Source: a virus (Duplodnaviria > Heunggongvirae > Uroviricota > Caudoviricetes). Taken from it: a stretch of 29,553 bases of DNA. The stretch is taken from positions 1 to 29,553 of the IMG/VR virus record IMGVR_UViG_2579778538_000006. One strand, written 5' to 3'. Shown one piece after another: positions 6,292 through 29,553 of the stretch. The notes under the pieces are model-generated. The model did no database searches and was not told the DNA's origin. It saw only the letters and a list, made by a program, of their open reading frames with translations. Made by a program: the position numbers and the translations under genes. Each line of letters opens with the position of its first letter. Within the stretch, counting starts at the first letter, position 1.

Positions 6292-6497
6292 TGCACAGAA
6301 TACCAGGCGAGATACCGCACCATAAAACTAAAAATATCAAGCTGATGGCTATTGTTCAGCGTTTACAGCGGATTATGGTCAACGAAAATATGACGCCCGA
6401 TGAGCTGGTCGGGTGTGCCGAAATAGTCCGGGATAATTACGGGCGGTTTAATCATATCGGTCAATCAAGAGTTACGCCACCACCACGCAGACGATAG
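6291..6497 (+). CDS. Small hypothetical protein, 68 aa
   Basis: ORF whose ATG overlaps the upstream stop as TAATG (6289-6293), suggesting translational coupling; C-terminal Pro/Arg-rich tail; no known motif. Confidence 0.35.
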   Translation: MHRIPGEIPHHKTKNIKLMAIVQRLQRIMVNENMTPDELVGCAEIVRDNYGRFNHIGQSRVTPPPRRR

Positions 6498-6720
6498 AGA
6501 ACGCCGCCAGTCGTGAAACTTGTTTTCAGGGCTGGCGGGGTTGAACAACGAGCGAAGCGAGGCGTTAGTTGACAGACATATTTTTACTGCGTTGGTGCCG
6601 GTTTTTGACGGTTGAAAGGAGTTAGGTTGGAGAGCCAACAACTTACAAATATTCAAAAGTAAGCATCCTGTTGCTAACATGAGGTCGATTTTTTATGTGG
6701 ATGATGCAAAAAGGATAGCT

Positions 6721-7452
6721 ATGGATACTATAATCGCTTTTCTATCACTCGCTTTTTTCGTTGCTTTCTTCATCGGGTTAATCAAGCCATCACTGGTGCG
6801 AATGCCAAACCGCAAACGTGCAAGTGCGGTTTATCTCGGAGGAGGTTTTGTATTGAGCATAATTGGTTCAATACTCTATCCAACAGAAAAAAGCCAGCCA
6901 GTTGCTAAAACTGAAACATCAACCGTTGCAGAACACAAAGTCCAAAAAACATTCGAATATGGTGAAAAAACACTCAAGGAATATCGGAACGAGTCAAAGA
7001 AAACACGACACGATATTGTGAATAGTTACATTGATTTTAAGGAAGTTCCAGCCACCGCGTCAGATGCGTTTTATGCCTGCATGAGTGAGTATACATTTAC
7101 CAAAGATGATGAGTTGAAACTCGGTGATGTTCTTGGGTGGTGCTTTAATGATTATGAAAATGACCCGAATTCACTAAACAATAAAATCAATCTTGATACA
7201 TTTCAGAGTAATTTTAGTGGTTGGGATGGTTCTTATCGTCCATTGGAAAAACTAATTAAAGATAATATGAACGATGATTCATCTTATAAACATGTGTCAA
7301 CGGTATATCATTTGGTTTTGAATAAAGACCCGTACGCTATTGTGAAAACTACGTTTCGCGGTACTAATGCTTATGGTGGAGTGGTTAAGCAGACTATAGC
7401 TGCGCGCGTCGACATACGAACGGGAGAGGTTGTATCAATATTAGATAATTGA
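6721..7452 (+). CDS. Membrane-anchored hypothetical protein (two N-terminal hydrophobic segments), 243 aa; AT-rich cargo
   Basis: AAAGGA RBS upstream of ATG 6721; N-terminal hydrophobic helices (IIAFLSLAFFVAFFIGLI and AVYLGGGFVLSIIGSILY) followed by a hydrophilic domain; visibly AT-rich codon usage unlike the prophage backbone. Confidence 0.6.
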   Translation: MDTIIAFLSLAFFVAFFIGLIKPSLVRMPNRKRASAVYLGGGFVLSIIGSILYPTEKSQPVAKTETSTVAEHKVQKTFEYGEKTLKEYRNESKKTRHDIVNSYIDFKEVPATASDAFYACMSEYTFTKDDELKLGDVLGWCFNDYENDPNSLNNKINLDTFQSNFSGWDGSYRPLEKLIKDNMNDDSSYKHVSTVYHLVLNKDPYAIVKTTFRGTNAYGGVVKQTIAARVDIRTGEVVSILDN

Positions 7453-7517
7453 TTATAAGCAATGAGTGTTGAATGGTTTTCTGCACTCATATAAATATGA
7501 ATTTTTTAGGTGATGTA

Positions 7518-8453
7518 ATGGAATATCAACTGGATTTACAAGAGAATGCTATTGATAGTTTTAATGAAGCTTTAGCAAAGTATGAGTTAGGGCAGAGAGG
7601 AGAATTGCGGCAATATAAATTTGCTATCTTGCATTTGTCACATTTTCTTGAGCTGGTGTTGAAGTTATATATTGTTACAGTAGATGAAAATTTACTGTAT
7701 TCCGATTGCTATAAACAAATAGCTACAAGAGCAAAGCAAGAATCAATCAGTCTTTTAGACGCATATAATAAAATTATCGAGGATGGCGTTGATTTAGGAA
7801 GGTTCATTGAAGGGAAATCTAAGCCATATACGATAACCTTAGATCAGGCACTAAACTTTGCTAAGTGTGAGAAATGCGGCATAACTGGGGTTGATTTTGT
7901 AGATATTGATTTTTGTAATGATATAGCTTGGATAAAGAATTTAAGAAATGATATTGAGCATTATCAATTCAGACTTACTCCTAAAGACGCGCGCTTGTGT
8001 ATTGGACGCCTCGTCCGGGGGGTAGCTGAGTTTATTGATATCTTCGATCTTTTTAATCTTGAAGATGAAGTCGGTGCAGATAACTTACAGATATTTCAAA
8101 CTTTAGCTGATGAATACTCTCATCGGCTCTCTGAAGCCAAGAAAGAAGTTGAAGAAAGAGAGGCTGAAGCTTTTTATGGGGTTAGGCATAAATTTTATGA
8201 ATTGGTCGATTGGAAAGTTTATGAATGTCCTGAGTGTTCTAACGACACAATGATTCCCTCTGATGAGTCTTCTACGGGTTACAAATGCACTTTTTGTCAG
8301 AATGAAGATAGTGATGATATTGATGTTGCTTGCGATTGTTGTGGTGCGCAGGCTCCCAGCAGCGAAATGAGCATTTGGCCAATGGATGATGGTGATGTTG
8401 AGTATCGTTGTTACTACTGTTCAGGGCAGTATCAGGCAGATAAAGACTTTTAA
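7518..8453 (+). CDS. Hypothetical protein with HEPN-like R-N-x3-H motif and C-terminal Cys-rich zinc-ribbon-like tail, 311 aa; AT-rich cargo
   Basis: AGGTGA RBS upstream of ATG 7518; 'LRNDIEH' (Arg codon 7944-7946, His codon 7959-7961) matches the Rx4-6H HEPN signature; C-terminus has four CxxC pairs (CPEC, CTFC, CDCC, CYYC); AT-rich; follows the membrane ORF after 65 bp on the same strand. Confidence 0.6.
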   Translation: MEYQLDLQENAIDSFNEALAKYELGQRGELRQYKFAILHLSHFLELVLKLYIVTVDENLLYSDCYKQIATRAKQESISLLDAYNKIIEDGVDLGRFIEGKSKPYTITLDQALNFAKCEKCGITGVDFVDIDFCNDIAWIKNLRNDIEHYQFRLTPKDARLCIGRLVRGVAEFIDIFDLFNLEDEVGADNLQIFQTLADEYSHRLSEAKKEVEEREAEAFYGVRHKFYELVDWKVYECPECSNDTMIPSDESSTGYKCTFCQNEDSDDIDVACDCCGAQAPSSEMSIWPMDDGDVEYRCYYCSGQYQADKDF

Positions 8454-23259: not shown

Positions 23260-23787
23260 ATGCAGCATTTAAAAAACATTAAGTCAGGTAATCCAAAAAC
23301 AAAAGAACAATATCAGCTAACAAAGAATTTTGATGTTATCTGGTTATGGTCCGAAGACGGAAAAAACTGGTATGAGGAAGTAAGTAATTTTCAGGAAGAC
23401 ACGATAAAGATTGTTTACGATGAAAATAATATTATTGTCGGCATCACCAGAGATGCTTCAACGCTCAACCCTGAAGGTTTCAGCGTTGTCGAGGTTCCTG
23501 ATATTACCGCCAACCGACGTGCTGATGACTCAGGGAAATGGATGTTTAAGGATGGTGCCGTGATTAAGCGGATTTATACGGCAGACGAACAGCAACAACA
23601 GGCAGAATCACAAAAGGCCGCGTTACTTTCCGAAGCGGAAAGCGTTATTCAGCCACTGGAGCGCGCTGTCAGGCTGAACATGGCAACAGATGAGGAGCGT
23701 AGCCGACTGGAAGCATGGGAACGCTACAGTGTTCTGGTCAGCCGTGTGGATCCTGCAAATCCTGAATGGCCGGAAATGCCGCAATAA
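23260..23787 (+). CDS. G: Tail fibre assembly chaperone (P2 G-like Tfa), 175 aa
   Basis: 175 aa as in P2 G; immediately downstream of H; Gln-rich linker and conserved C-terminal '[11 protein letters not shown]'-type tail typical of Tfa proteins. Confidence 0.8.
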
Positions 23788-23848
23788 GTGATATGATCTC
23801 TTGTGTTAGTTAACATAGCTATAGTACAGAGTAAGGCCTAATCTGACA

Positions 23849-23872
23849 GTCCGCTCTGTGCTAGGAGCGGAC
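23849..23872 (+). terminator. Hairpin downstream of G (GTCCGCTC-N8-GAGCGGAC), possible terminator or regulatory stem
   Basis: 8-bp perfect inverted repeat read directly; not followed by a clean T-tract, so terminator function is uncertain. Confidence 0.3.
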
Positions 23873-24176
23873 ATTATCAACATCATGCTATGTTAATGTA
23901 TAAAGTGAAGATAAATTGATATAATAAGGCCACCATGAATATTTCAGAACCTTGTCAAAAGGTTTGCACATACTCTAGTCTTGCAATGTGTAGTTGATAG
24001 TTCCACTGAGGAGGTTCTTCGACATTCTTTATAAAAATGTACATTTTCATCAATAATAAGAGGTAAAAGGGCTTTAATAGTTTTTTGTGGATGTTATGTC
24101 CACTCATAAATTTTGAGATAAGTATTGAGTTGAGATAAAGTTAAACTCGTTAAATTCACCTTTAAAAGGATAAAGC

Positions 24177-24704
24177 ATGGACTGGAAAGATCTTGCATCA
24201 ACCGCTGTGTATACAGGTATGACTGATGAAAATGAAAACATATGGGAACGTGTTGATGGGGTTGACGTTGCCTTCATAGGTGCCTTTCTTACTGCGCACT
24301 TGAGCCTTGAAAAGTATATTACTGATTATCTTGGATTAAGATATCCTTCGTTAGCTTGGGGTGATGCAAAACTCACATTTTCACAAAAAATAGCTTTAAT
24401 ACAACATGAGCCTGCAAAACCCCCTTATGATGAAATATATTTAAGAATAAAAGACTTTAACAGCATAAGAAATAAAATCAGTCATCAATTGAATTATCAG
24501 ATTACGGATAAAGAAAAAAGTAAGTTTGTGGACTTCTACATGAAGATTACTAAAGCCAGTAAAACTAAACCAAATATTGATATTGATAACATGGCAGATT
24601 TGTTGGATTTTTTCGTGTCGATGACAAAATCCTATTTTGCTAGTGCTATTTCTTATTATCACTGTAATAAAAAGGTTGCAGGTAAAAGTAATAAAATTGA
24701 TTAA
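24177..24704 (+). CDS. Hypothetical protein with HEPN-like R-N-x3-H motif, 175 aa; AT-rich cargo in the G-FI (Z/fun) slot
   Basis: AT-rich ORF with A-rich RBS region; 'IRNKISH' (Arg codon 24468-24470, His codon 24483-24485) matches Rx4-6H; preceded by a roughly 390-bp AT-rich non-coding stretch (23788-24176). Confidence 0.6.
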   Translation: MDWKDLASTAVYTGMTDENENIWERVDGVDVAFIGAFLTAHLSLEKYITDYLGLRYPSLAWGDAKLTFSQKIALIQHEPAKPPYDEIYLRIKDFNSIRNKISHQLNYQITDKEKSKFVDFYMKITKASKTKPNIDIDNMADLLDFFVSMTKSYFASAISYYHCNKKVAGKSNKID

Positions 24705-24879
24705 TAAAACTGGACTTAGGGATAATTAATATATAGACGTTCTATCATTTTTAGAGTGTGCGGCAGCTCCATACATTCATGCGGATGTCAGCACCTCGCT
24801 CAAAGCAGACAGTCAGATTTGATAGCGTTTGGACTATGTAAATAGTCAGTTGGAAAATGAGTGAGTACAAACCAGGACA

Positions 24880-24906
24880 GGCGGGCGAATTGCCCGCCTT
24901 TTCTTT
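24880..24906 (+). terminator. Rho-independent terminator (GGCGGGC-GAATT-GCCCGCC + TTTTCTTT)
   Basis: 7-bp GC-rich stem, 5-nt loop, T-rich tail, read directly; lies between the cargo gene and the FI promoter region. Confidence 0.7.
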
Positions 24907-25002
24907 ATCTGTTGTTTCATCCACTGACCAGCCAGGTCAAATAGCGCCTCATACTCTGCACAACAGAAAATAATTGCACCCATTAACCACGGAGTTAAAC
25001 GG

Positions 25003-26193
25003 ATGAGTGACTATCATCACGGCGTGCAGGTGCTGGAGATTAACGAGGGCACCCGCGTCATTTCCACTGTATCCACGGCCATTGTCGGCATGGTCTGCAC
25101 GGCCAGCGATGCGGATGCGGAAACCTTCCCCCTCAATAAACCTGTGCTGATTACCAATGTGCAGACCGCAATTGCAAAGGCCGGTAAAAAAGGCACGCTG
25201 GCGGCATCGTTGCAGGCCATCGCCGACCAGTCAAAACCGGTCACCGTTGTCGTGCGTGTGGAAGACGGCACCGGCGACGACGAGGAAACGAAACTTGCGC
25301 AAACCGTTTCCAATATCATCGGCACCACCGACGAAAACGGTCAGTACACCGGACTGAAAGCTCTGCTGGCGGCGGAGTCGGTAACCGGTGTTAAACCGCG
25401 CATTCTCGGTGTGCCGGGACTGGACACCAAAGAGGTTGCCGTCGCACTGGCATCAGTCTGTCAGAAGCTGCGCGCTTTCGGGTATATCAGCGCATGGGGC
25501 TGTAAGACCATTTCCGAGGTGAAAGCCTACCGCCAGAATTTCAGCCAGCGTGAGCTGATGGTCATCTGGCCGGATTTCCTCGCATGGGATACGGTCGCCA
25601 GTACCACCGCCACCGCGTATGCCACCGCCCGTGCGCTGGGGCTGCGTGCCAGGATCGACCAGGAGCAGGGCTGGCATAAAACGCTGTCCAATGTCGGGGT
25701 GAACGGTGTTACCGGCATCAGCGCATCTGTATTCTGGGATTTGCAGGAGTCCGGCACCGATGCTGACCTGCTTAACGAGTCAGGCGTTACTACGCTGATT
25801 CGCCGTGACGGTTTCCGCTTCTGGGGTAACCGTACCTGCTCTGATGACCCGCTGTTCCTCTTTGAAAACTACACCCGCACAGCGCAGGTGTTGGCCGACA
25901 CGATGGCTGAGGCGCACATGTGGGCGGTGGACAAACCCATCACCGCAACGCTGATTCGCGACATCGTTGACGGCATCAATGCCAAATTCCGTGAGCTGAA
26001 AACAAACGGCTATATCGTGGATGCGACCTGCTGGTTCAGCGAAGAATCCAACGATGCGGAAACCCTCAAGGCCGGAAAACTGTATATCGACTACGACTAT
26101 ACCCCGGTGCCTCCTCTTGAAAACCTGACCCTGCGCCAGCGTATTACTGATAAATACCTGGCAAATCTGGTCACCTCGGTTAACAGCAATTAA
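25003..26193 (+). CDS. FI: Contractile tail sheath protein FI, 396 aa
   Basis: 396 aa as in P2 FI; GGAG RBS at 24991-24994; followed by tube gene. Confidence 0.9.
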   Translation: MSDYHHGVQVLEINEGTRVISTVSTAIVGMVCTASDADAETFPLNKPVLITNVQTAIAKAGKKGTLAASLQAIADQSKPVTVVVRVEDGTGDDEETKLAQTVSNIIGTTDENGQYTGLKALLAAESVTGVKPRILGVPGLDTKEVAVALASVCQKLRAFGYISAWGCKTISEVKAYRQNFSQRELMVIWPDFLAWDTVASTTATAYATARALGLRARIDQEQGWHKTLSNVGVNGVTGISASVFWDLQESGTDADLLNESGVTTLIRRDGFRFWGNRTCSDDPLFLFENYTRTAQVLADTMAEAHMWAVDKPITATLIRDIVDGINAKFRELKTNGYIVDATCWFSEESNDAETLKAGKLYIDYDYTPVPPLENLTLRQRITDKYLANLVTSVNSN

Positions 26194-27208: not shown

Positions 27209-28436
27209 CAATGTAAAATTACAGGTATTGCTCAGGGCTGTTGACCAGGCATCCCGCCCGTTTAAATCCATCCGCACAGCGAGCAAGTCGCTGTCGGGGG
27301 ATATCCGGGAAACACAAAAATCACTGCGCGAGCTGAACGGTCACGCATCCCGTATTGAGGGATTCCGCAAGACCAGTGCACAGCTCGCCGTGACTGGTCA
27401 GGAACTGAAAAAAGCCAGACAGGAAGCCGCAGCTCTGGCAGTCCAGTTTAAAAATACTGAACGACCGACAAATGCACAGGCAAAGGCAATGGAAGCCGCG
27501 CGTAAAAATGCGTCTGAGTTACAGGCGAAATATAACAGCCTGAGATTGTCGGTACAGCGCCAGCGTCAGGAATTGAGTCAGACGGGTATTAATACCCGCA
27601 ATCTTGCACATGATGAGCAGGGACTGAAAAACCGTATCAGTGAAACCACCGCACAGCTTAACCGTCAGCGCGACGCGCTGGCGCGTGTCAGTGCGCAACA
27701 GGCAAAACTTAACGCAGTAAAACAGCGTTATCAGGCAGGCAAGGAACTGGCCGGAAATATGGCCTCAGTGGGCGCTGCCGGTGTGGGGATTGCTGCTGCG
27801 GGAACGATGGCCGGAGTTAAGCTGCTGATGCCCGGTTATGAGTTTGCGCAGAAAAACTCAGAATTGCAGGCCGTGCTAGGTGTGGCAAAAGACTCCGCCG
27901 AAATGGCCGCGCTCCGCAAGCAGGCGCGCCAGCTCGGCGATAATACCGCCGCCTCGGCAGATGATGCAGCAGCAGCTCAAATCATCGTGGCTAAATCGGG
28001 AGCGGATAAAAATGGCATCCTGGCACAAACACCGGCCATTTTGAATATGTCACTGGCAAACAAGAAAACGATGGAGGAAAACGCCACTTTACTTATTGGG
28101 ACAAAATCGGCATTCGGGCTTGCTGACGATAAGGCTTCCCATATTGCTGATGTTATTTCAATGACGATGAATAAATCGCAAGCCACATTCGAGGGACTAA
28201 GTGATTCACTTACCTATGTCGGGCCAGTGGCAAAAGATGCAGGTGTCAGCCTGGAAGAAACAGCAGCAATGTTAGGTGCATTACACGATGCAAATATCAG
28301 TGGGTCTATGGCTGGCACAGGAAGTCGAGCAGTACTGAGTCGTTTGCAGGCACCAACCGGGAAAGCGTATGACGCTATTAAAGAGCTTGGCGTAAAGACA
28401 ACTGACAGCAAAGGTAATACGTGCGTATTTTCATGA
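27201..28436 (+). pseudogene. T: Tail tape measure protein T, 3'-truncated (411 aa remaining) by IS insertion
   Basis: Alpha-helical, Ala/Gln-rich N-terminal half typical of tape-measure proteins; reading frame ends abruptly at 28436 where IS21-family terminal repeats begin; P2 T is recalled as about 815 aa. Confidence 0.8.
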
Positions 28437-28439
28437 AAG

Positions 28440-28550
28440 GAGATCACTCAATAACTTCCATCGAGATCGGGTAATAACATTTGAACAGATCGCTGAATAA
28501 CATCGATGGAGATCACTTTTGACTCATTTTGTTATTCAGTGATCTCCATC
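28440..28550. repeat. IS21-family terminal multiple repeats (three copies of GGAGATCACT / AGTGATCTCC)
   Basis: Copies at 28440-28449, 28510-28519 and inverted at 28541-28550; additional ATAACATCGATGGAGATCAC / GTGATCTCCATCAATGTTAT inverted pair. Confidence 0.7.
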
Positions 28551-28614
28551 AATGTTATTGGAACTTCACAGGTGTGTTGATCTGTATCTTTTGCCATTCC
28601 GGTAAAGGATACCT

Positions 28615-29553
28615 ATGCCAACAGTTCCAATTTCTATGAGAAAACTTAAAGAAATTCTTAGGCTTAAATACGGTGTTGGACTCAGCCATCGACAAATTGG
28701 TCGTAGTCTTGCAATCTCCCCTTCCGTTGTATCCAGATATGCTAATCGGGCGGCTCAACTTGGCATAAAGCAGTGGCCCTTACCTACAGGATGGGATGAT
28801 ACAAAACTAAAACATGCGTTCCTTCAGACCCAGGTTAAGATGAAGAAGCACTCTCTGCCTGACTGGGCTACAGTACACCGGGAACTGCGTAATAAATGCG
28901 TGACGCTGCAGCTACTCTGGGAAGAATACTGTGAGCGTAATCCAGGCGGTTTTTACAGCTATAACCATTACTGCCGGATGTACCGTGAATGGCTCAAAAC
29001 CACTTCACCATCAATGCGTCAGGTACATAAAGCTGGCGAAAAACTTTTCGTTGATTACTGTGGACCTACCGTTGGCGTTACCGACCCTGAGACCGGAGAA
29101 ATAAGAACTGCTCAGGTCATCGTAGCTGTTCTCGGGGCATCAAGTTACACATGGGCAGAGGCCACCTGGTCTCAGCAGCTTGAAGACTGGGTGATGAGTC
29201 ATGTTCGCTGCTTCCAGTGGTTGGGTGGCGTTCCTGAACTTGTTGTTCCGGACAATCTGAAAAGCGCCACATCCAGGGCATGTAAGTATGATCCTGACGT
29301 TAACCCTACCTACCAGCAGATGCTTGAGCATTATAATGTCGCAGTTTTGCCTGCGCGGCCACGTAAACCGAAAGATAAAGCCAAAGCTGAAGTTGGCGTT
29401 CAGGTTGTTGAACGCTGGATCATGGCCCGAATCAGGCATGAGATCTTCTACAGCCTTGCATCGCTTAATCAGCGCATTCGGGAGTTGCTGGAAAGACTGA
29501 ATAACAAAATAATGCAGAAGTTGGGTTATTCACGTGCAGAACTCTTCATCCAG
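28615..29553 (+). CDS. istA: IS21-family transposase IstA (5' partial; no stop within window)
   Basis: Frame open from ATG 28615 to window end (313 codons, translated by hand); N-terminal HTH (LKEILRLKYGVGLSHRQIGRSLAIS) and DDE-type core (FVDYCGP...VPDN...) typical of IstA; AAAGGA RBS upstream. Not in the ORF track because it lacks a stop in the window. Confidence 0.85.
   Translation, partial: MPTVPISMRKLKEILRLKYGVGLSHRQIGRSLAISPSVVSRYANRAAQLGIKQWPLPTGWDDTKLKHAFLQTQVKMKKHSLPDWATVHRELRNKCVTLQLLWEEYCERNPGGFYSYNHYCRMYREWLKTTSPSMRQVHKAGEKLFVDYCGPTVGVTDPETGEIRTAQVIVAVLGASSYTWAEATWSQQLEDWVMSHVRCFQWLGGVPELVVPDNLKSATSRACKYDPDVNPTYQQMLEHYNVAVLPARPRKPKDKAKAEVGVQVVERWIMARIRHEIFYSLASLNQRIRELLERLNNKIMQKLGYSRAELFIQ

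Follow-up and report, generated by a model that had tools for sequence, protein, structure and literature searches.

A predicted stand-alone HEPN endoribonuclease in the Z/fun hotspot of a P2-like prophage, a candidate abortive-infection gene

The window analyzed in this work is the whole stretch of 29,553 nucleotides (nt) that constitutes the IMG/VR virus record IMGVR_UViG_2579778538_000006 (Caudoviricetes; positions 1 to 29,553), and our subject is an AT-rich insert between its tail-fiber assembly gene G and tail sheath gene FI, with one intact open reading frame (ORF) encoding a protein of 175 amino acids (aa). The region 23788-24906 is 100% identical to Escherichia coli JJ2434, where the P2-like prophage is complete, from int adjoining cpxP to ogr adjoining fieF. 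The protein is compared below mainly with HepS (STM14_3211; PDB 9oij, 9oik) of the Salmonella prophage Gifsy-1, a solo prophage HEPN abortive-infection protein that forms a tetramer and cleaves tRNA anticodon loops (Sargen et al., Nature 2026, PMC13043305). The locus is organized as follows.

23260..23787, plus strand: gpG, tail-fiber assembly gene, the left conserved flank (Pfam Caudo_TAP, E-value 1.1e-36; RefSeq: tail fiber assembly protein)
23875..24784, no strand: variable cargo of the Z/fun hotspot (flank alignment with P2, L-413C, Wphi, P22H1, and P22H4; composition)
24177..24704, plus strand: gene for the 175-aa solo HEPN-domain protein (WP_032153539, phrog_5483), a predicted metal-independent endoribonuclease
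24309..24311, plus strand: codon of E45, a conserved acidic residue on HEPN helix 1 (aligns with the invariant E48 of HepS)
24468..24485, plus strand: codons of R98-N99-K-I-S-H103, the Rx4H catalytic motif (aligns with R100-N101-x3-H105 of HepS)
25003..26193, plus strand: gpFI, tail sheath gene, the right conserved flank (Pfam Phage_sheath_1, Phage_sheath_1C, and Gp18_domIII_N)

The initial annotation, made from the sequence alone, placed the insert between gpG and gpFI at the Z/fun position of P2, which is confirmed by the Pfam matches of both flanks and by alignment of the slot with P2. The G-FI (Z/fun) slot is a documented second defense hotspot of P2-like phages (PMC9519451; bioRxiv 10.1101/2024.10.15.618418). 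In P2, L-413C, Wphi, P22H1, and P22H4 it is occupied each time by a different, unrelated cargo gene in either orientation, P2 itself having fun(Z) in the G-FI interval on the opposite strand. The products P2 Fun(Z), L-413C p20, Wphi orf44, P22H1 gp22, and P22H4 gp22 were considered as relatives of the phrog_5483 protein and rejected, all five being unrelated to it. As the backbone shared with these phages is conserved up to approximately 23874 and again from approximately 24785, the variable cargo spans approximately 23875-24784 (about 910 bp). Its G+C content is 0.325, compared to 0.513 for the whole window; hence the insert is AT-rich, as had been noted, but is shorter than the segment 23788-24906 originally ascribed to it.

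The ORF at 24177-24704 and the string IRNKISH encoded at 24468-24485 are both found where the initial annotation had put them. The Rx4-6H signature that it recognized in this string is present and conserved across the superfamily, but is weak when taken alone: the bare Rx4-6H pattern occurs in 25% of shuffles of the 175-aa protein, and R[NDH]x3H, in 1.4%. As one shuffle in four contains it, the Rx4-6H motif by itself is not evidence for a HEPN domain, and the assignment is carried by conservation, fold, and profile matches.

Close homologs were collected by a word-indexed search, which yielded 24 proteins (22 of them aligned) with identities of 58-99%, all from Enterobacterales wherever the source names the organism. 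M1, W3, Y12, W23, H41, E45, R98, N99, and H103, among others, are invariant in the 22 aligned Enterobacterales homologs. An exhaustive profile search at E-values up to 1e-3 retrieved a superfamily of 367 clusters (50% identity), nearly all of 140-220 aa; an alignment of 51 superfamily members, sharing 21-30% identity with the query, shows no variation at H41, E45, and R98 and a conservation of at least 90% at N99 and H103. HEPN domains are recognized by an Rx4-6H motif with a polar residue following the arginine, an acidic residue upstream, and a helical fold, and an invariant set of these residues (R, polar, H, and the upstream acidic one) is the pattern linked to active RNases (PMC3710099). 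Here, R98-N99...H103 provides the motif with a polar residue (N, from the allowed N, D, or H) after R, and E45 provides the acidic residue, although not in the typical Ex3[KR] form, the +4 position being T49. Individual members of the superfamily weakly match several Pfam HEPN families, and PHROGs assigns the protein to phrog_5483 with unknown function. Weak Pfam matches of the protein itself, to DUF6548 (0.025) and FKBP26_C (0.057), are below threshold and were discarded; no homolog among structural or regulatory phage proteins was found.

From the 51-sequence alignment, AlphaFold2 produced a model with a mean predicted local distance difference test (pLDDT) score of 92.5 and a predicted template modeling (pTM) score of 0.83. 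It starts with an N-terminal beta-hairpin (residues 10-15 and 21-25) and continues as helices, R98-H103 terminating helix 87-103, and the predicted structure contains the all-alpha helical bundle that superposes on solved HEPN domains. Structure prediction and Foldseek, suggested in the initial annotation as a check, thus predict a HEPN fold, the best PDB match being HepS (9oij_A, with probability 0.99, but E-value 0.064 and TM-score 0.45).

The relation to HepS is also seen at the profile level. Searched against PDB, the superfamily profile matches HepS with E-value 1.6e-6 and the HEPN domain of Csm6 with E-value 0.015. HepS (210 aa) was recovered from IMG/VR and a 17-sequence alignment of its family was built, the published HepS set having 393 members; a 54-aa HepS fragment used as a query gave no match in the homologous-protein search or in the phage collection. 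Alignment of the two families by hhalign has a probability of 97.5% (E-value 5.6e-12, 93 columns) and pairs (query/HepS) E45/E48, F68/F73, W61/F66, and both RNxxxH motifs. In PHROGs, HepS belongs to phrog_5712 and has a weak match to phrog_5483 (1.3e-8).

Of 5426 complete E. coli genomes, 49 carry the cassette (coverage at least 80%), located in the G-FI slot of P2-like prophages; among sequenced phages it is present in one, vB_EcoM-569R9. Beyond this slot, the gene and about 80 bp of upstream DNA recur in other elements, including further P2 hotspots, satellite-like and chromosomal islands, and a siphophage:

another P2-like tail region, beside AbiGi
the A-Q (old/tin) hotspot of a P2-like remnant
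a D5-primase island, beside a DUF4238 gene
an integrase/AlpA island, beside DUF2971/PDC-S31
Dryocola and Superficieibacter islands with SIR2 and SIR2-STAND genes
chromosomal islands in Serratia and Pectobacterium
a siphophage (metagenomic contigs L024-L027), the ortholog (68% identity) lying beside a lysozyme gene

More distant members adjoin DarTG, or DprA with a 197-aa gene in an integrase/AlpA island. The neighbors of this single-domain, 175-aa protein differ in at least eight contexts, although a partner-like gene lies upstream in three genera and a paralog in one. Such changing contexts are the usual signature of a self-contained defense gene.

Several observations concern individual loci of this set. 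The siphophage has a tail-tip protein of 1351 aa, carries a gene for a NUMOD3 homing endonuclease, and has no close relative among 50,697 phage records. Pectobacterium sp. PL64 has two tandem HEPN-family paralogs (L009 3284-3784 and 4001-4510), about 33% identical, the first with GHLVVEH...RNKFAH, and its genome encodes a true HepS-family protein elsewhere (P0197). In an Ewingella P2-like remnant, a protein of 425-485 aa (L021 4665-5942, L022 4665-6122) is encoded convergently with the HEPN ortholog and has YRSAIVHG (Rx4H) near its C-terminus; it matches nothing in Pfam or PADLOC, and possibly represents another HEPN protein of this hotspot, not related to the first. Variation of the gene itself includes codon 163 (24663-24665), which encodes C163 in the window copy and Y163 in the cluster representative, and the variant of phage vB_EcoM-569R9 (ON470601.1 24971-25522), annotated 24 bp longer (183 aa).

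The HEPN gene is under purifying selection, with the ratio of nonsynonymous to synonymous substitution rates (dN/dS) of about 0.1 (0.07-0.15 compared to orthologs in other genera), and the ORF is intact in every copy examined. This bears on the possibility that the gene is a non-functional passenger in decay, which recombination has stranded in the hotspot. The gene immediately upstream of it is clearly decayed, and many recombination remnants have been described in P2 and P4 defense loci (a 2026 study in Nucleic Acids Research, PMC13586616); but the low dN/dS across genera, the intact ORF, and the invariant catalytic residues make such an explanation highly improbable, the adjacent remnant, by contrast, having fallen to about 70% identity with frameshifts.

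The gene is therefore real and intact, evolves under purifying selection, has a predicted HEPN fold with conserved catalytic residues and a remote homolog in HepS, and travels as a module. Analysis of these data together makes it reasonably probable that 24177-24704 encodes a stand-alone HEPN endoribonuclease, a lysogenic-conversion (moron) gene of the Z/fun hotspot acting as a HepS-like, trigger-activated abortive-infection RNase. A small HEPN protein at this locus had been put forward as a plausible abortive-infection or exclusion factor, and the predicted fold, as well as HepS being the closest characterized relative, support that suggestion. By analogy with HepS, the protein would be synthesized in lysogens under the control of a promoter of its own and would rest as an inactive oligomer. 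Upon infection, some protein or process of the incoming phage would then switch the RNase on, the conserved N-terminal beta-hairpin being the candidate sensor, and paired R98/N99/H103 sites would cut cellular RNA without metal, most likely tRNA anticodon loops, so that translation would stop, the infection would abort, and sister lysogens would be protected. What we infer here is expression in the lysogen, cleavage of RNA and specifically of tRNA, the kind of trigger, and abortion of the infection; the defense function is likewise deduced from homology and context. The Z/fun slot, the HEPN superfamily, and the concept of solo HEPN abortive-infection proteins are already known, while the phrog_5483 family itself is uncharacterized.

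A number of observations weigh against this interpretation. Homology to HepS is significant only between profiles and is limited to the HEPN core, with about 19% identity, and a single-sequence phmmer comparison with HepS gives E-value 0.16. Nothing aligns outside HepS residues 40-134, including the trigger-binding N- and C-terminal segments (S13, D15, S202, T203); in HepS, these tails bind a peptide of the lambda J tail-tip protein, which opens the tetramer (PMC13043305). Most HepS residues involved in tetramer and tRNA contacts are not conserved, K71, K78, and L83 aligning with L66, A73, and E78. As the tails and most contact residues differ, neither the trigger nor the RNA target of HepS can be transferred to the 175-aa protein. 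The ORF has no significant match in Pfam, NCBIfam, or PADLOC 2.0 (for PADLOC, zero families at E-values up to 1), and neither WP_032153539 nor phrog_5483 is mentioned in any paper of the literature searched. A promoter scan found six sigma-70-like sites compared to 5.1 expected, none of them above chance. In the E. coli solo lineage, dN/dS is 0.23-0.71 on four to eight differences, too few to prove continued selection, and one distant member of the family lies among housekeeping genes. Moreover, outside E. coli the closest relatives have an additional upstream gene, which has been destroyed here, and the solo protein might be part of a former two-component system.

The upstream gene left its trace in the leader between gpG and the HEPN gene, which is 389 bp long and contains no intact ORF. 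The leader was earlier described as about 390 bp of non-coding DNA; this agrees with its length and the absence of an intact ORF, but overlooks a pseudogene. Two segments can be distinguished.

23935..24095, plus strand: decayed remnant of an upstream gene for a 170-aa protein ("HEPN-A," phrog_12893, with RNxLAH), identified by blastn and by MAFFT alignment with intact genes
24096..24176, plus strand: proximal upstream region travelling with the HEPN gene, with the ribosome-binding site AAGGA at 24166-24170

The intact 170-aa gene is located directly upstream of the HEPN ortholog in Citrobacter, Superficieibacter, and Dryocola (L015-17, L038, L039), and window positions 23860-23993 match the start of this gene at L015 3106-3239 with 83% identity (blastn). 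About 75 bp upstream of the HEPN-A start codon (23860-23934, a putative promoter region) are retained, followed by a stub at 23935-23997 comprising ATG and 19 codons, MNISEPCQKVCTYSSLAMCS* (20 codons). After the stub there is a 19-bp frameshifting deletion, then about 100 bp of debris approximately 70% identical to the intact gene, and then a deletion of about 600 bp ending about 80 bp before the HEPN start, as seen in the MAFFT alignment with Citrobacter and Dryocola. The deletion is common to all 49 E. coli copies (coverage at least 80%); each of them has kept the HEPN ORF intact, and the prophages carrying them differ in their tail fibers. Hence the description of the insert as single-gene cargo holds for its present state, but not for the original one, which had an upstream gene as in Citrobacter, Superficieibacter, and Dryocola.

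HEPN-A has a conserved E...RNxLAH pattern, but sequence comparison did not confirm a HEPN identity (hhalign probability 1.7%, no PDB match). Its only homolog among the 50,697 phage records is gp38 of Salmonella phage PSP3; this gene is annotated as cargo, is situated where the A-cos hotspot region ends, and has only the 69-aa orf37 for a neighbor.

These data allow for the main alternative explanation, in which the 175-aa protein is the orphaned half of a two-gene system, acting together with HEPN-A as a heterodimer, a sensor/effector pair, or a toxin/antitoxin pair; the E. coli copy would then be inactive, deregulated, or neofunctionalized following the loss of HEPN-A. For the three closest orthologs outside E. 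coli (87-88% and 83% identity), the upstream gene is indeed intact and its distance from the ortholog is constant, in Pectobacterium the upstream position is taken by a paralog of the HEPN gene, and the window retains the start of HEPN-A with its upstream DNA ahead of the frameshifted debris. Still, we consider this explanation unlikely. Orthologs with 61-82% identity are solo in at least six contexts (Serratia, the siphophage, P2 beside AbiG, the primase island, the A-Q hotspot, and Enterobacter), and as they occur alone in so many unrelated contexts, HEPN-A is not needed to tolerate or use the HEPN gene. The phage homolog of HEPN-A, PSP3 gp38, is in turn a cargo gene itself, with only orf37 beside it, all E. 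coli copies share the deletion and yet keep the HEPN ORF across differing tail fibers, and the low hhalign probability gives no support to a HEPN identity of HEPN-A.

The proximal segment 24096-24176 is retained in the loci of Citrobacter, Pectobacterium, Serratia, Superficieibacter, and Dryocola, irrespective of the sequence preceding it. As about 80 bp of upstream DNA with AAGGA travel with the gene, a private promoter is likely, and this segment is its likely seat, judging from conservation. The initial annotation also proposed searching for a cognate antitoxin or small RNA around the ORF, and the search found none: no conserved small ORF or antitoxin partner was detected on either strand, and an Rfam search of 23600-25100 at E-values up to 1 yielded no Rfam-family RNA, with one spurious match to a long non-coding RNA at 0.66. 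Minus-strand ORFs at 23955-24107, 24094-24201, and 24104-24277, as well as plus-strand ORFs of the leader, were rejected as genes because they are short and are situated in the pseudogene debris or in DNA absent from orthologous loci.

Downstream of the cargo, two features belong to the phage backbone.

24879..24906, plus strand: rho-independent terminator, conserved backbone, just upstream of the pF region; present in all P2-like phages compared
24907..25002, plus strand: pF late-promoter region, approximate coordinates (alignment with P2, whose annotation puts the site 69-97 nt upstream of FI)

The terminator has a 9-bp G+C-rich stem and a T-run (RNA folding free energy, dG, of -20.1 kcal/mol, z-score -3.8), and in the P2-like phages compared it is kept whatever cargo occupies the slot and whichever way the cargo points. 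Thus, the terminator noted initially is indeed present and insulates pF, but it does so for any occupant of the slot and says nothing specific about the HEPN gene. The pF region appears, by position, to be homologous to the P2 binding site of the Ogr activator and the transcription start of the F operon, the coordinates being approximate.

The arrangement of transcription units is relevant to another explanation, namely, that the gene benefits the phage in some other way, as an RNase serving lytic growth or induction of P2 (through host shut-off or RNA processing) or as a factor of counter-defense or competition directed at co-resident elements such as P4. Sharing its strand with the late V and F operons, the gene could be expressed late by transcripts running on from the V operon; the hairpin following G (23849-23872) lacks a clear U-tract, and the siphophage ortholog lies beside lysis genes. 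On the other hand, the slot is dispensable and hypervariable, containing unrelated genes in either orientation in other P2-like phages, the gene also occurs in non-phage chromosomal islands beside SIR2, DUF2971, and DarTG genes, and the closest characterized relative is a host-protective abortive-infection protein (PMC13043305). Hence we assign only a small probability to this possibility, below that of the two-gene system.

The cargo is bracketed by two inverted arms.

23836..23875, plus strand: left arm, AATCTGACA followed by a hairpin with a 9-bp stem; P2 backbone, inverted copy of the right arm (nhmmer E-value 1.5e-12)
24785..24824, minus strand: right arm, inverted copy of the left arm; P2 backbone (nhmmer E-value 2.8e-11)

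The arms form an inverted repeat of 35-40 nt, 80% complementary over 35 nt, and the RNA fold of the left arm has dG of -17.3 kcal/mol (z-score -3.3). They are retained in six P2-like phages with unrelated cargo. Moreover, the nhmmer model of the arm matches non-P2 chromosomal islands, namely L038 (E-value 1e-8), L039, L009, and L010, and in Superficieibacter, Dryocola, Pectobacterium, and Serratia islands the arms flank the HEPN cassette together with SIR2, SIR2-STAND, or DUF2971 genes. Arm-like sequences are also found in intergenic DNA of an IncFII plasmid and of a Yersinia plasmid. The copies identified with the arm model outside the window are:

L038, 4100-4140 and 9574-9609
L039, 4082-4121, 6397-6423, and 8190-8223
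L009, 3116-3148 and 7679-7705
L010, 4612-4649
L058, 5001-5036
L059, 5001-5039

No target-site duplications were seen beside the arms. The arms may supply short shared homology or a recognition site for cassette movement between P2 hotspots, satellites, plasmids, and islands, but could equally be simply co-transferred P2 flanks. A bolder proposal, in which the arms are portable cassette-boundary elements, is speculative and in our opinion rather doubtful, as is a linked one, in which the family senses a different phage component via its own N-terminal hairpin. The mechanism of cassette swaps in the absence of flanking homologous genes or transposases is left open by the 2026 study (PMC13586616), and portable arms, if confirmed, would answer this question.

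Two other regions of the window deviate in composition. The interval from replication gene A to portal gene Q (approximately 6344-8142; JJ2434 4475113-4476911), which is the other P2 hotspot, has G+C content 0.34-0.40 and holds a helix-turn-helix gene, a 316-aa gene of the reverse-transcriptase family, and a 145-aa ORF on the opposite strand, probably constituting retron- or DRT-type defense cargo. At 28400-28700, within the tail tape-measure gene, the G+C content falls to 0.38.

If the stand-alone RNase reading is correct, approximately 1% of complete E. coli genomes, including clinical extraintestinal pathogenic (ExPEC) and enterotoxigenic (ETEC) isolates, carry a further single-protein abortive-infection RNase on a P2-like prophage, which bears on host range in phage therapy. 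As the family is missing from Pfam, NCBIfam, and PADLOC, current defense finders overlook it, none of the 367 clusters being annotated. Together with HepS, it would make two strongly diverged proteins of one design that differ in their sensor ends, and comparison of the two could show how solo HEPN proteins become adapted to different triggers. Swapping and trimming of cargo in the hotspot have left concrete traces in the decayed partner gene and in the shared boundary arms.

Among known systems, membership in the MtlR/YggD family (PDB 3brj, 3c8g, 6kcr) is very unlikely, given no Pfam or profile match to MtlR and no mannitol-operon context, the profiles finding HepS and Csm6. MtlR proteins are chromosomal regulators of mannitol operons, often without the catalytic motif (PMC3710099), whereas in the 175-aa family the motif is invariant and the gene is mobile. 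For HEPN-MNT systems (e.g., PDB 7ae2, 5yep), no ORF of an MNT nucleotidyltransferase or of another conserved antitoxin is present in 23788-24906 on either strand or beside any ortholog, and the 175-aa protein differs from HEPN-MNT toxins by an extra N-terminal hairpin and by its long C-terminal helix. Fun(Z) of P2 shares with the 175-aa ORF the G-FI slot, the conserved flanks, and the terminator, but is 528 aa long, is encoded on the opposite strand, does not match the hidden Markov model of the family, and has no sequence relationship to it. Fun(Z) blocks T5, and three PD systems have been found at the Z/fun locus (PMC9519451); the 175-aa protein matches no PADLOC model, PD systems included.

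The most similar system is HepS. Both are small stand-alone prophage proteins with one HEPN domain, an RNxxxH site, and a conserved glutamate on helix 1, both are encoded by moron genes situated between essential phage modules, and most members of either family lack an identifiable conserved partner gene. They differ in length (175 and 210 aa), in PHROGs assignment (phrog_5483 and phrog_5712), and in the host element, a P2-like myovirus here and a siphovirus for HepS; moreover, the 175-aa family has its own conserved N-terminal beta-hairpin (M1, W3, L6, T9, Y12, I22, W23). As only the core aligns, the PHROGs are separate, and the tails are not conserved, the 175-aa protein is a remote relative of the HepS design rather than its ortholog.

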